Counted from the stretch's first letter, positions 7,942 to 12,413 are shown. The stretch: 64,000 bases of DNA from Planctomycetota bacterium (GCA_023954375.1 JAMLIC010000006.1:82972-146971), one strand, 5' to 3'. The notes: a model not told the origin generated them from the sequence alone. Program-made: numbers and translations.

Positions 7942-10319
7942 CCCCCGAGCAGGCGGACGAGGCGGCGGTCGCCCTGGGCCTGGCGCGCGGGTGGCTCTCG
8001 CCCGAGCAGGTGGAGAGGCGCCGCGCCCAGCGGCGGGCGCGGCCCGACGCGTCGCTCCTCGACCTCCTGGCCCGCTACGACCTCACGCCGGCGCACGCGG
8101 CGGCGCTCCGCGCCGCCCACCAGGCGGCGCTCGCCGGCCGCCCGCCGGAGGCGGCGGCGATGGCGGCGCTGCCGACCGACGCCCTGCACCCGCCGACGGC
8201 CTCGCGCCCCGCGGCGCGCATCGGGCGCTACGAGGTGGTGGCCCCGCTGGGCAAGGGCGGCATGGGCACCGTCCTGCGGGTGCGCGACGCCGCCGGACGC
8301 CTGCTGGCGCTCAAGCTCCTCCAGGCCGCCGCCAACCCCACCGCCCGCGCCCGCTTCGAGCGCGAGGCGCGCCTCCTCGGCCGGATGACCGCGGCCGACG
8401 GCTTCGTGCCGCTCCTCGACCTCGGCCACGGCCCGCAGGGCCCGTTCATCGTCATGCCGCTGCTCGAGGGCGGCAACCTGCGCCAGCGCCTCGAGCGCGG
8501 GCGGCCGACCGTCGACGAGGCGCTCGCGTGGGGGCGCGCGCTGGCGAGCGCCCTGGCGGAGGCGCACCGGCGGGGGATCGTCCATCGCGACGTGAAGCCC
8601 GAGAACGTGCTCTTCGACGACGACGGGCGGCCGCTCCTCGCCGACCTGGGGCTCGCCAAGCACTTCCGCGACGACGTGCCCGGCGCCACGTGGACGGTCT
8701 CGATCTCGCGCCGGGGCGACTGCATGGGCACGATCGGCTACATGGCGCCCGAGCAGATGCTCGACGCCAAGGCCGCGGGCCCGCCGGCCGACGTGTTCGC
8801 CCTGGGCGCCGTGCTGTTCGAGTGCCTCGCAGGCGCCCCCGCCTTCGCTGGCGAGTCGCCCATGGAGGTGGTGGCGGCCGTCACCGAGGGCCGGCGCGCC
8901 GCCCTGCGCGACCTGGCCCCGGAGGCGCCCGCGTGGCTGGTCGACGCTGTCGAGGCCGCCCTGGCCCACGACCCCGCCGCCCGCCCGGCGGACGGGGCCG
9001 CGCTCCTGCGGGCCCTGCGCGGGACCGCGCCGGCGCGCCGGCGACCGCCCTTCGCCCTGGCCGCGCTGGGCGGCGCGGCGCTGCTCGCCCTCACGCTCGC
9101 CGCGGTCGTCCTCCGGCCCGCGCCGCCGCCCCCGTCGCCTGCGTCTGCGCCGGACGCCCCGGCGTCGCGGTCCTCGGCGACGCTCGAGGGCGCGAGCGCG
9201 CTCGACCTCGACGAGGCCCTCGCCCTGGCCCGCGCGGCCGCCCCCGACGCCCCGGGGCTCGCGCGTCGAGCGCGGGCCCGCTGGCGCCTCGACGACCGGC
9301 GCGGGGCGCTCGACGACCTCACGCGCGCCGCGGCGCTCGCGCCCGACGACGGGGCCGTGTGGGTGGACCTGGGCCTCGCGCGGCTGGCGCTGGGCGACCT
9401 CGCGGGCGCGCGCGAGGCGGCGGAGCGCGCCCTGGAGCGCGCGCCCCGCCGCTGGGAGGCGTGGGCCCTGCGCGGGCGGGTCCGGACGGCCCAGGGGCAG
9501 GCGGTCGAGGCGGCGGCCGACGTGCACACCGCCTGCGAGCTGGCGCCCGACGAGGGCGAGGCCTGGGCGCACGCCGCCGCGGTGCTCGCCCCCCGGGAGG
9601 TCGCCCGCGCCGCCGAGGCCGCCGAGCGCGCGCTGGCGCTGGGCTGGCGCACGCCCGAGGCGCTCCTCGCGCGCGCCGGGGGGCGCCGGCACGTCGACCG
9701 CGCCGGCGCGCTGGCGGACGTCGACGAGGCCCTGCGCCTCGCGCCCGACCACGCGGCGGCGCACGCCGCGCGCGCGCTGACGCTCGTCGATGCGCTCCGC
9801 TACCGCGAGGCGCTCGCGGCCCTCGAGCGCGCCTGCGCGCTCGACCCCTCCCTGGCGGACGACGGGGAGCTCGCACGTCAGGGCGGCTTCCTCTACCTGA
9901 CGAGCGGCGACCTCCCGCGGGCGGTCGAGTGGCTCGACCGCGTCCTGGCGCAGACGCCCGACAACGCGCTCCTGCGCGTGCACCGCGGGGCGGCCCGCGT
10001 GCGGCTGGGCGAGCTCGCCCTCGCGCGCGCGGACCTCGATCGGGCGCTCGAGCTCGGGCCCGACCTCCCCTGGGCCTGGAGCGGCCGGGCGGCGCTCCTC
10101 GCGGCCGAGGGCGACCGGCCCGGGGCGCTCGAGGCGCTCGAGCGGGCGCTCGCCCTGGCGCCCGACTTCCCGGAGGCGCTCGAGGCCCGCGCGGCGCTGC
10201 GCCTGACGGCGGGCGACCGGGCGGCCGCCGCGCGCGACCTCGCGCGCGCGCTGGCGCTCGAGCCGGAGCGCGCGGAGCGGCTCGCGCCGGGGCTGCGCGC
10301 CCTGCGCGGCGAGCCGTGA
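7938..10319 (+). CDS. Ser/Thr protein kinase with TM segment and C-terminal TPR repeats
   Basis: GTG start overlaps the activator stop (GTGA). Hanks motifs GKGGMGTV, ALK, HRDVKPEN, DLGLAK, GTIGYMAPE. TM helix FALAALGGAALLALTLAAVVL. About 11 TPR-like repeats follow. Confidence 0.85.
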   Translation: MTPEQADEAAVALGLARGWLSPEQVERRRAQRRARPDASLLDLLARYDLTPAHAAALRAAHQAALAGRPPEAAAMAALPTDALHPPTASRPAARIGRYEVVAPLGKGGMGTVLRVRDAAGRLLALKLLQAAANPTARARFEREARLLGRMTAADGFVPLLDLGHGPQGPFIVMPLLEGGNLRQRLERGRPTVDEALAWGRALASALAEAHRRGIVHRDVKPENVLFDDDGRPLLADLGLAKHFRDDVPGATWTVSISRRGDCMGTIGYMAPEQMLDAKAAGPPADVFALGAVLFECLAGAPAFAGESPMEVVAAVTEGRRAALRDLAPEAPAWLVDAVEAALAHDPAARPADGAALLRALRGTAPARRRPPFALAALGGAALLALTLAAVVLRPAPPPPSPASAPDAPASRSSATLEGASALDLDEALALARAAAPDAPGLARRARARWRLDDRRGALDDLTRAAALAPDDGAVWVDLGLARLALGDLAGAREAAERALERAPRRWEAWALRGRVRTAQGQAVEAAADVHTACELAPDEGEAWAHAAAVLAPREVARAAEAAERALALGWRTPEALLARAGGRRHVDRAGALADVDEALRLAPDHAAAHAARALTLVDALRYREALAALERACALDPSLADDGELARQGGFLYLTSGDLPRAVEWLDRVLAQTPDNALLRVHRGAARVRLGELALARADLDRALELGPDLPWAWSGRAALLAAEGDRPGALEALERALALAPDFPEALEARAALRLTAGDRAAAARDLARALALEPERAERLAPGLRALRGEP

Positions 10320-12413
10320 GCGGGCCCTACCAGCTCCTGGACGAGCTCGGCCGCGGCGGCGGGGGCGTCGTCGTCCGCGCGCGTGGGCCCGACGGCGCGC
10401 TCGTCGCCCTCAAGCTCCTCCCCGGCGGGCGCGCGGGCGACGCCGAGGCGCTGGCGCGGTTCGCGCGCGAGACGCGGCTGCAGGCCTGGCTCGGCGCCGC
10501 GCAGGGCTTCGTCCCCCTCCTCGACCACGGCGTCGGCCCGCGGGGGCCCTACCTCGTCATGCCGCTCCTCCCGGGCGGCACCCTGCGCGACCGGCTCCGC
10601 GCGGGCCCCCTGCCGGTCGACGACGCCGTGGCGCTCGTGCGGCGGGTGGCGCGGGCCATGGCCCTGGCCCACGCGCACGGGGTCGTGCACCGCGACCTCA
10701 AGCCGGAGAACGTCCTCTTCGCCGCCGACGGCGCGCCGCTCGTCGCCGACCTGGGGCTCGCCCGTCACCTCGCGCCGACCGACGACGCGGCCTCGCGCAC
10801 GGGCGAGTTCCGGGGCACGCTCGGCTACGCCGCTCCGGAGCAGCTCGACGACGCCGCGCGCGCCGGGCCCCCCGCCGACGTGTTCGCGCTCGGGGCGATC
10901 CTGCACGAGTGCCTGGCCGGGGCGCCCCCGTTCGGCGGCGGGGGCGAGCTCGAGCGGATCGCGCGCACGCGCGCCGGGAAGGTCGAGCCCCTGCGCCGCG
11001 CGCGGCCCGACGCGCCGCCCTGGCTGGCCGCCGTCGTCGAGCGCGCCCTCGCCCCGCGCCCCGACGACCGCTACCCGCACGCGGGCGCCCTCGCGCGCGC
11101 GCTCGCCCGCCCGCCCCGGCGCGGGCGCGGCGCCTCGTCGCCCTCGTCGCGGCGTCGCCGCCGCCGCCGCCGCGCTGGCGCTCGCCGCCGCCGTCGCCCG
11201 GCCAGGGGGGCCGCCGAGCGTCGGGGGGCCGGCGCCGCCGTCGGCGGCCGTGGACCGTGTCGCCCGCGCGGCCGACCTGCGGCGCGAGGGTCGGCTCGAG
11301 GAGGCCTGCGCGGCGCTCGACGAGGCCGTCCGCGGCGCGCCGCTGCGCCTCGACGCGCTCCTCGCGCGCGGGCGCCTGCGCCAGGAGCTGGGCGACCTGG
11401 CCGGCGCGCGCCGTGACCTCGACCTGGCCGTGCGGACCTGGTCGAGCGCGCCGACGGCGTGGGCGCGCCGGGCGCTCGTGCGGCTCGAGCAGGGGGAGGT
11501 CCAGGGGGGCTTCGACGACGCGTCGCTGGCCAGCCGCCTGGACAACCGGGTGGCCGCCACGCGGCTGGCGCGCGGCGCGGCGTGGGTGGCGCGCGGCCTC
11601 GACGTCGCGGCGGCCGCGGAGCTCGACGCCGCGCTGTCGCTCGACCCCGGGGAGGCGCTGGCGCTCGGCTACCGCGCGCTGGCGCGGCGCAAGCAGGGCG
11701 ACCGGACGCGCGAGCGCCTGGACCTCGACCGCGCGCTCGACCTCGACCCGCACCACCCGTGGCTCCTCGGCCAGCGGGGGATCACCGCGCTGAGCGCGGG
11801 CGAGCTCGACGCGGCCGAGGCCGACTTCGCGCGCGCCGTCGCGCTGGCCCCTCGCTCGGCCAGCGCCTGGGCGAACCTGGGCGGGGCGCGCCTGCGGCAG
11901 GGGCGGGCGGCGGCGGCCCTGGAGGCGTTCGACCGCGGGCTCGAGGTCGCGGCGCCGACGGCGTCGCTCAGCCACGGCCGCGGCGTGGCCCTGGCGACGC
12001 TCGGGCGCGACGTCGAGGCGGAGGCCGAGCTCACGCGCGCGCTCGCGCTCCTGCCGGGCGACCGGACCGCGCTCGAGCTGCGCGCGGGCGCGCGGGCGGC
12101 GCTCGGCGACGTGGTCGGCGCGCTCGACGACCTCGACCAGGCCCTGGCGCGGGCGCCCGACGTCGCCAGGCTGCTCGAGCAGCGCGGGGCGGTGCACCTC
12201 CTCCGCGGCGACCACGAGCACGCCTTGCTCGACCTCGACCGCGCGCTCGCGCTCGACCCGTCGAGCGCGACGGCGCACCTCGCCCGCGGCGTGGCCCGCG
12301 CGCGGGCGGGGCGCGACGCGGGCGCGGCAGAGGACCTCGAGCGGTTCCTCGACCTCGCGCCCGACCATCCGCGCGCCGACGAGGCGCGCGAGCTCCTGCG
12401 CCGGCTCAGGTGA
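10316..12413 (+). CDS. Ser/Thr protein kinase-TPR paralogue with an apparent +1 frameshift between the kinase domain and the TM/TPR region
   Basis: GTG start overlaps the STK1 stop. Kinase motifs GRGGGGVV, ALK, HRDLKPEN, DLGLAR, GTLGYAAPE lie in the frame of track ORF 7991..11416. After ...YPHAGALARALARPP that frame degenerates into Arg-rich nonsense. The TM helix (GVAAAAAALALAAAVA) and TPR repeats lie in the frame of ORF 10383..12413. The shift is near 11110-11170. Confidence 0.7.

Follow-up and report, generated by a model that had tools for sequence, protein, structure and literature searches.

A receptor kinase gene broken by two frame steps behind a sigma-54 activator in a planctomycetal genome: probable indel errors in a stretch of extreme GC content

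In myxobacteria, Ser/Thr kinases are linked to transcription factors and to FHA-domain sigma-54 activators. The gene of a Hanks-type kinase lies next to that of a sigma-54 enhancer-binding protein in these systems, as it does at the locus described here. However, the activator here has a GAF domain and lacks the FHA phospho-threonine reader, the host is a planctomycete, and a kinase-to-activator cascade is proposed here by analogy only. An FHA-type activator adjoins a homologue of the present kinases at another locus (L085).

Planctomycetota possess membrane Ser/Thr kinases with periplasmic TPR or WD40 arrays, which form large lineage-specific paralogue families whose members are often adjacent (Genome Biol Evol 2024, PMC11032199). 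In these receptor kinases one TM helix separates a Pkinase domain on the cytoplasmic side from a long TPR array at the C-terminus, which is predicted to lie in the periplasm, and the two kinases of this locus, STK1 and STK2, follow the same plan. The STK-TPR architecture is already described for the phylum, and the comparison reveals no structural difference; here, however, two copies stand behind a sigma-54 activator with overlapping codons, and one of them is frame-broken. Full-length homologues of the kinases, at 40-44% identity, come mostly from Planctomycetota metagenome-assembled genomes (MAGs).

The window analysed is a 64-kb stretch of such a MAG (record MCO5166433.1, 'MAG: Planctomycetes bacterium'). 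Three genes follow one another on the plus strand, encoding a GAF/sigma-54 activator, STK1 and STK2 (Table 1). The TGA stop of the activator overlaps the GTG start of STK1 in a GTGA at 7938-7941, and the TGA of STK1 overlaps the GTG of STK2 in the same way at 10316-10319, which bears out the sequence-only reading of three genes joined by overlapping stop and start codons. The overlaps are compatible with a one-transcript operon, whose three genes would be co-transcribed and translationally coupled. The activator-STK1 overlap is kept in the sole close relative found (L089, GCA_019636275.1), whose activator is 92% identical. Scans for sigma-70 promoters and terminators gave nothing informative within the operon. 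The sigma-54 promoter consensus TGGCAC-N5-TTGCW is not enriched in the window (10 matches with at most two mismatches, 10.35 expected) and has no exact match there; the targets of the activator may lie outside it. No NCBIfam equivalog scored over its cut-off for any of the three proteins. As a whole, this is a planctomycetal signalling operon of ordinary type, in which two paralogous single-pass receptor Ser/Thr kinases follow a GAF-type sigma-54 enhancer-binding protein.

Table 1. Features of the locus and of a second broken gene in the same window
Feature	Position	Strand	Evidence
Sigma-54 activator, 509 aa: GAF - AAA+ (sigma-54 interaction) - HTH_8 enhancer-binding protein	6412..7941	+	Pfam; NCBI match
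STK1, 793 aa: N-terminal extension, Hanks kinase, basic linker, TM helix, about 10-11 TPRs	7938..10319	+	Pfam; NCBI match
STK2 segment A, frame +2: complete kinase domain and start of basic linker (...ALARALARPPRRG)	10316..11125	+	Pkinase 2e-35; frame plot, HMM, codon log-odds
STK2 segment B, frame +1: (A)RRLVALVAA, end of basic linker and first third of TM helix	11126..11154	+	Codon log-odds
STK2 segment C, frame +0: rest of TM helix ((V)AAAAAALALAAAVA), Pro/Gly linker, about 11 TPRs	11155..12413	+	TPR families; periodicity
Out-of-frame run-on in frame +2: Arg-rich tail (RRRRRRRRAGARRRRR...) to the stop at 11414-11416	11150..11416	+	Translation; stop position
Longest stretch of at least 90% GC (100-nt windows) in the 64 kb; holds both STK2 frame steps	11035..11259	.	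GC scan
Second frameshifted gene: TM protein with conserved C-terminal region, about 1090 aa if repaired	24441..27717	+	Codon log-odds; homologues

The activator is identical over its whole length (100%) to the NCBI protein of the same record, including the GTG start. It matches GAF (4e-10), Sigma54_activat (5e-60, 202 bits), AAA_lid_14 and HTH_8 (35.8 bits) in Pfam, and thus combines the AAA+ domain and the C-terminal HTH_8 that define an enhancer-binding protein. Its domain order is that of the NifA-type GAF-AAA+-HTH proteins, and the NifA structure 9qq6 is its best match among solved structures (9e-71, residues 29-492), but with 315 bits it comes nowhere near the NifA equivalog cut-off of 529. 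NifA-type proteins have GAFTGA and a Walker B DE, whereas here, beside a Walker A of GESGTGK, the sigma-54-contact loop is GAFSGA, a conservative T-to-S change in the alignment to NifA and ZraR, and Walker B reads LLLDQ, with Gln in the place of the Glu of these two proteins, the catalytic residue for ATP hydrolysis. GAFSGA is found in 6 of the 119 activator homologues that have the motif; at Walker B, 89 of 94 have DE, and DQ occurs only here and in the 92% identical relative. This conserved pairing of DQ with GAFSGA is the only mildly unusual point of the locus.

STK1 has an intact reading frame and is 100% identical to a 793-aa NCBI 'protein kinase' (P0241). It matches Pkinase (1e-33, 117 bits) and many TPR families in Pfam. 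In its N-terminal 97 aa Pfam finds nothing even at E=10, which leaves a resemblance to the c-di-GMP-binding MshEN/T2SSE_N motifs unsupported. The kinase domain of STK2 is 55% identical to that of STK1 and matches Pkinase nearly over its full length (profile positions 1-252 of 263) with 122.7 bits; both kinases pass the Pfam cut-off of 31.7. Both also carry the catalytic motifs of Hanks-type kinases: GxGxxGxV, (L/V)ALK, HRD(V/L)KPEN, DLG and APE. A periodicity of 34 residues gives about 10-11 TPRs in each protein, with several TPR families above their cut-offs; in STK2, eight motifs are exactly 34 residues apart, with degenerate repeats upstream. Pfam, motifs and periodicity thus agree with the common plan of kinase, basic linker, TM helix and about 11 TPRs that had been read from the sequence alone. 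Each protein would place its kinase domain in the cytoplasm and, beyond one TM helix, about 11 TPRs in the periplasm. Through the TPRs the kinases may detect a ligand or partner in the periplasm; their phosphorylation targets would be cytoplasmic and might include the adjacent activator.

A kinase-to-activator phosphorylation cascade is plausible by analogy with the myxobacterial systems. A further hint is given by fusion proteins (P0133, P0134, P0216) that hold the same modules in one polypeptide (Pkinase-GAF-Sigma54_activat-HTH_8), with activator parts 42-44% identical to the present one; such Rosetta-stone proteins suggest that kinase and GAF activator may work together. In the fusions the kinase domains are soluble, N-terminal and without TM helix or TPRs, whereas here the modules are separate genes. 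Synteny of activator and STK-TPR genes is absent at activator homologues of 56-59% identity, which have other neighbours, and at STK2 homologues with 58-60% identical kinase domains. Exact look-ups of STK1, the STK2 kinase ORF and the activator in the contig index returned no match.

The given sequence of STK2 cannot be read in a single frame. By codon-position GC and a 7-state HMM, evidence that is independent of homology, the coding phase is +2 to about 11149 and +0 afterwards, and frame +2 does not meet a stop until 265 nt past the change of phase. Pfam agrees, since the frame +2 ORF (10316-11416) matches Pkinase and nothing more, and frame +0 (11103-12413, with its stop at 12411-12413) matches only TPR families (TPR_2, 5e-27). 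The sequence-only reading had placed a +1 frameshift between the kinase and TM/TPR parts, at about 11110-11170. Its location stands and the net change is indeed +1, but a single slip does not account for it. Codon statistics reveal three successive frames: +2 until about 11105-11133, +1 for about 25-50 nt, and +0 from about 11152-11157. The end of segment A in Table 1 is approximate, as the first step lies somewhere within 11105-11133, in G/C runs.

The middle segment is short, and the model of two deletions depends on its nine codons. Over 11129-11152 the codon log-odds are +10.2 nats for frame +1, -4.1 for +2 and -13.8 for +0, and none of 9621 off-frame 7-mers in this window is comparably hydrophobic to the RRLVALVAA stretch. 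The two-step path gives STK2 an uncharged TM run of 22 aa, with a hydropathy (KD19) of 2.60 and RR before it. The 119 homologues have a median run of 22 aa (10-90% range 18-26) and a median KD19 of 2.34, and STK1 has a run of 23 aa preceded by RRR. With a single shift the run of STK2 is only 15-16 aa and its KD19 1.52, under the 10th percentile of the homologues; only by way of frame +1 does STK2 acquire a TM helix of the expected 20 aa or so, flanked by basic residues on its kinase side. The HMM's own reading, a single +1 insertion at 11151-11152, was dropped in favour of two steps on account of TM length, the 7-mer scan and the codon log-odds. If a G is inserted after 11125 and another after 11154, the result is a stop-free ORF of 699 aa. 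In single HSPs that cover its residues 3-699, this ORF aligns with P0003, P0006 and P0007 at 41-44% identity.

The break probably stems from indel errors of presumably technical origin in DNA of extreme GC content, a conclusion we hold with moderate confidence. Of the explanations that had been offered from the sequence alone, an indel error is the best supported, a recent pseudogene is less favoured, and a separate TPR protein finds no support. In the organism STK2 would be an intact gene for about 699 aa, and the break would reflect the loss of two bases that lie about 25-45 nt from each other in short runs of G/C, within a stretch of 91-92% GC; they probably went missing in the sequencing, assembly or polishing of the genome, whose origin as a MAG is a further point in favour of error. 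This reading is preferred because the two-step path rebuilds a canonical TM helix, and because a second gene is also frameshifted and both breaks coincide with the two longest stretches where GC reaches 90% or more. Only 0.58% of the 100-nt windows reach 90% GC, in 11 regions, of which 11035-11259 and 25265-25483 are the longest; together these two make up about 0.7% of the window sequence. The second gene changes from frame +0 to +1 at about 25325-25335, inside the latter stretch, and its frame +0 has no stop until 27753. Its homologues are 983-1283 aa long with N-terminal extensions of 200-415 aa, and one of them (P0318) aligns over the junction in one HSP. Two indels within 50 nt and none elsewhere in 2.1 kb are expected from a locally unreadable stretch, unlike neutral decay.

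A genuine and very recent inactivation is possible, if somewhat unlikely. STK2 would have lost two bases, or undergone one complex deletion-insertion, in the linker/TM stretch. It would then yield at most a soluble kinase with a nonsense tail of about 90 aa, rich in Arg, ending at 11416, with the TPR part untranslated and STK1 carrying the function. That tail would be translated only if the given sequence is correct; its codon log-odds in frame +2 are negative. In its favour, the sequence leaves no doubt about the frame change. STK-TPR paralogues form large families of fast turnover, with several copies per contig in relatives (PMC11032199), and STK2 is missing from protein databases that do contain STK1 and the activator of its contig, as would match annotation as a pseudogene. 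The comparison with the relative also speaks for inactivation: over the 5.6 kb shared, at 88% identity, every coding-region indel is a multiple of 3, with no frame-breaking indel in 5.4 kb of coding sequence. The assembly is thus not indel-ridden in general, which counts against the error reading. G/C-rich low-complexity DNA is a hotspot for real mutation too. Against inactivation, GC3 is about 1.0 and codon bias perfect on both sides of the junction, the 2.1 kb hold no further lesion, and neutral decay would be unlikely to produce two independent indels 25-45 nt apart. Moreover, the only other stretch of comparably extreme GC content holds the break of a second, unrelated gene, and this argues for a technical cause that depends on GC.

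Homologues of STK2 leave room for both of these explanations. A search with the fused STK2 protein gave no match above 61% identity, and matches at that level cover the kinase domain only. A scan of genome contigs, dominated by generic kinase patterns, gave only matches of 24-44% identity and no orthologue spanning the junction. No protein that would be the relative's STK2 orthologue was found in 5.8 billion sequences, an absence also expected if both genomes shared a real pseudogene. Yet the relative's contig stops 166 nt into STK1, and the search with the STK1 protein returned only itself and no orthologue from the relative; the region is therefore perhaps just unassembled.

It seems distinctly improbable that both frame breaks are real and that extreme-GC, low-complexity linkers act as mutational contingency sites, which would uncouple cytoplasmic signalling domains from membrane or periplasmic parts. 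If this were true, STK2 would end up soluble, as a kinase carrying an Arg-rich tail, and the membrane protein encoded at 24441-27717 would likewise be truncated, while the activator, with its hydrolysis-defective Walker B (DQ), might run on phosphorylation and not on its own ATPase cycle.

Separate expression of a soluble kinase and of a TM/TPR protein from its own start codon is very doubtful. Frame +0 is open over 10383-12413 and the TPR part is intact, but the separate TM-TPR protein is rejected because this frame has no usable start codon. Before 11330 it holds only two, GTG 10383 and GTG 11250. A start at the first would mean 770 nt out of frame within the kinase region, and the 256 residues so added have off-frame codon statistics; the second lies past the TM helix, lacks a Shine-Dalgarno sequence and falls inside the still-open kinase frame. 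No stand-alone TM-TPR protein of the STK-TPR family occurs among the 120 homologues listed.

Least credible is a toggling of STK2 between membrane receptor and soluble form by programmed recoding or slipped-strand phase variation: the break does lie in repetitive G/C-rich DNA, with (GCC)6 and short G/C runs, and the other broken gene, also for a membrane protein, has its break in a similar tract, but the site has no slippery heptamer or rare codon, 11100-11160 contains neither the in-frame stop nor the upstream Shine-Dalgarno-like stimulator of a prfB-like +1 frameshift, the homopolymers at the steps are only 2-4 nt long, a trinucleotide repeat cannot shift the frame, two separate shifts, both of -1 phase, would be needed, and all 119 full-length homologues are encoded in a single frame.

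With indel error as the preferred explanation, the locus has little biological import, as Planctomycetota and Myxococcota are already known to have receptor Ser/Thr kinases with periplasmic TPRs and sigma-54 activators next to them. The practical lesson concerns annotation. Where a MAG is very rich in GC, what looks like a pseudogene can be an artefact of assembly, with such artefacts clustered in stretches of at least 90% GC, and a three-frame codon-usage scan combined with a family constraint, here the length of the TM helix, can recover the intended protein.

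Three successive genes on the plus strand, in a region of 80–85% GC, encode an activator and the tandem kinases STK1 and STK2 (table). The TGA stop codon of the activator is overlapped by the GTG start of STK1 (GTGA), and the TGA of STK1 by the GTG start of STK2. Because these GTGA junctions overlap, co-transcription and translational coupling of the three genes are suggested. The activator-STK1 junction is kept, with mostly third-position changes, in the close relative GCA_019636275.1. The activator and STK1 each have a match of 100% identity, respectively MCO5166433.1 from an NCBI Planctomycetes MAG and an annotated 793-aa 'protein kinase'. 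At the other end, the STK2 stop codon (12411–12413) overlaps that of a convergent gene, and there is no room for a terminator between the two. The lower-GC island beyond may have been horizontally acquired. Upstream, a divergent Laminin_G_3/CCP_MauG gene also adjoins the activator in the relative (locus L089, 4493–8050).

Coordinates of genes, favoured frames and neighbouring features (frames +0, +1 and +2 are reading frames on the plus strand)
Feature	Position	Strand	Details
Divergent gene	2727–6301	−	~1190 aa; Laminin_G_3, di-haem cytochrome c peroxidase (CCP_MauG), Cytochrom_C, DUF4214
Activator	6412–7941	+	509 aa; GAF, Sigma54_activat, AAA_lid_14, HTH_8 (Pfam)
STK1	7938–10319	+	793 aa; Pkinase and many TPR families (Pfam)
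STK2	GTG start at 10316	+	Frame +2 Pkinase (2e-35); frame +0 TM segment and TPRs to 12413
Favoured frame +2	up to about 11104–11122		Codon log-odds
Favoured frame +1	11111–11164		Codon log-odds; peak +10.2 nats at 11129–11152 vs −4.1 (frame +2) and −13.8 (frame +0)
Favoured frame +0	from about 11147		Codon log-odds
Convergent gene	12406–12771	−	121 aa; zinc-ribbon/DUF4190
ORF in lower-GC island	12439–13641	+	Peptidase_C92 match, residues 209–329
Lower-GC island	12752–14347		67–71% GC vs 76–85% around; non-coding by codon HMM
tRNA-Cys (GCA)	14214–14285	−	Borders lower-GC island
Second frameshifted gene	24441–27717	+	ATG 24441 in frame +0; switch to frame +1 at ~25325–25335 (codon log-odds)

The sequence-only reading described STK1 and STK2 as paralogues with a change of coding phase in the latter, and this observation was correct. 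The kinase domains share 55% identity and hold all catalytic motifs, and each protein has about 10–11 TPRs with a spacing of 34 residues. STK1 additionally carries an N-terminal extension ahead of the kinase domain (residues 1–97, 7938–8228) that is absent from STK2 and matches nothing in Pfam at thresholds up to E=10; the relative retains it (L089, 9724–9892), with mostly synonymous changes. In STK2, frame +2 encodes a complete Pkinase followed by Arg-rich nonsense up to a stop at 11414–11416. Two homology-independent measures, codon-position GC and a simple 7-state HMM, place the phase shift within 11100–11200, the HMM with a single switch at 11149/11150.

The '+1 frameshift' proposed earlier holds as the net change of frame, not as a single slip. 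A three-frame reading gives ...ARRLVALVAAS... in frame +1 at 11128–11157, directly 5' of the frame +0 half-helix VAAAAAALALAAAVA; uncharged 7-mers with the hydrophobicity of LVALVAA occurred at 0 of 9621 off-frame positions in the window's genes. Codon log-odds, trained on the other genes in the window, favour the frames +2, +1 and +0 in turn. Across 119 homologues, median values for the uncharged TM run are 22 aa in length (10–90% range 18–26) and 2.34 in KD19. A single shift would leave STK2 with a run of 15–16 aa and a KD19 of 1.52, while two steps give 22 aa and 2.60, with RR in front as in STK1 (23 aa). With a single G added after each of positions 11125 and 11154, STK2 reads without a stop as a 699-aa protein, residues 3–699 of which align in a single HSP with each of three homologues (P0003, P0006 and P0007; 41–44% identity). 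The reading of the frames, the log-odds, the TM length and the repaired ORF thus indicate that the break consists of two missing bases ~25–45 nt apart, one in 11105–11133 and one at ~11152–11157, both in short G/C runs.

The frameshift probably has no biological origin, and a technical indel error is a fairly likely cause. This is favoured indirectly, firstly by the existence of a second frameshifted gene, the one other clear case in a whole-window scan for phase changes without a nearby stop. Its Pro-rich/TM N-terminal part lies in frame +0 and its conserved C-terminal region, with TPR and a HEATHQW motif, in frame +1. Homologues of the latter are single proteins of 983–1283 aa with 200–415 extra N-terminal residues, and one of them (P0318) spans the junction in one HSP. 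Secondly, only 0.58% of 100-nt windows reach at least 90% GC, and the two longest such stretches, 11035–11259 and 25265–25483, are exactly the two broken sites. Thirdly, outside the junction both parts of STK2 are free of decay.

A real, recent pseudogene is unlikely, though it has points in its favour. In a 5.6-kb alignment to the relative (88% identity), every coding-region indel is a multiple of three, so the assembly is not prone to indels in general, and real mutations also concentrate in G/C tracts. A fourth point for the error is that, with two indels less than 50 nt apart and none elsewhere in 2.1 kb, a locally unreadable stretch fits better than neutral decay. An orthologue comparison does not reach the break, since the contig of the sole close relative, whose activator shows 92% identity, covers the first 166 nt of STK1. 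A protein database search gave no 100% match for either STK2 half, and thus no protein was annotated there by the depositors or PGAP. Split expression of the kinase and TPR parts, also proposed earlier, has a small share of the remaining probability. A separate TM/TPR protein is not supported, because frame +0 between 10383 and 11330 offers only two start codons: GTG 10383 would add an N-terminus of ~256 residues read out of frame, and GTG 11250 lies past the TM helix and lacks a Shine-Dalgarno sequence. Programmed recoding is similarly improbable: the break shows neither a slippery site nor a stop codon or stimulator.

Two smaller anomalies were seen on the plus strand. Just upstream of the second frameshift, at 25203–25248, codon usage favours frame +1 (+9.6 vs −16.6 nats in frame +0), which encodes ...RRRPLQALQDR up to the stop TGA 25246; a GTG in frame +0 at 25245 overlaps that stop (GTGA), and CTGCAGG occurs there twice as a direct repeat. 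Possible explanations are another local error, a genuine gene boundary or coincidence within a Pro/Ala linker. At 53104–53142, within gene 52155–54921, frame +0 scores +8.5 vs −1.6 nats in the gene's frame +1, with no stop problem visible; chance or a compensated indel pair could account for it.

As a bacterial enhancer-binding protein of the GAF type, the activator has NifA as its closest match in structure databases; the NCBIfam equivalog test rejected it as a NifA equivalog. At residues ~258–287 it has GAFSGA for GAFTGA and a Walker B of LLLDQ, with Gln replacing Glu. Both features are common to the activator of the 92% relative (P0122) and rare among homologues, where Walker B is DE in 89 of 94, DQ in two and DD in three. 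The Walker B Glu is required for ATP hydrolysis in AAA+ activators such as PspF. Given its replacement by Gln, the activator may be a slow or non-hydrolysing variant, perhaps an ATP-hydrolysis-defective enhancer-binding protein.

For Planctomycetota kinases, an architecture has been described in which a single TM helix joins a cytoplasmic Pkinase domain to a periplasmic TPR array, in large paralogue families whose members are often adjacent (PMC11032199). STK1, and STK2 once repaired, have this architecture. Many Planctomycetota metagenome contigs carry STK-TPR homologues of 40–44% identity, often several each; on Planctomycetota-like contigs three are adjacent in L081 (6180–11948) and two in L083 (10001–14278). 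In L085 (2089–9899) an STK-TPR gene lies directly upstream of an FHA-Sigma54_activat-HTH_8 activator.

In the periplasm, the TPR arrays of STK1 and STK2 probably bind a ligand or a protein; in the cytoplasm, the kinases would phosphorylate their targets. One candidate for such a target is the GAF activator encoded next to them, and Pkinase-GAF-Sigma54_activat-HTH_8 fusions exist (P0133, P0134 and P0216). The link is weak, since activator homologues of 56–59% identity have no STK-TPR genes downstream and the window shows no conspicuous sigma-54 promoter. In two such loci (L090, 5053–6972; L092, 2614–4542) a ~640-aa gene without a Pfam domain follows, which may be the ancestral partner of the activator family. 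STK1 and STK2 are Hanks-family kinases of the planctomycetal receptor-STK/TPR class, and the activator-STK1-STK2 locus belongs to a known kind of system.
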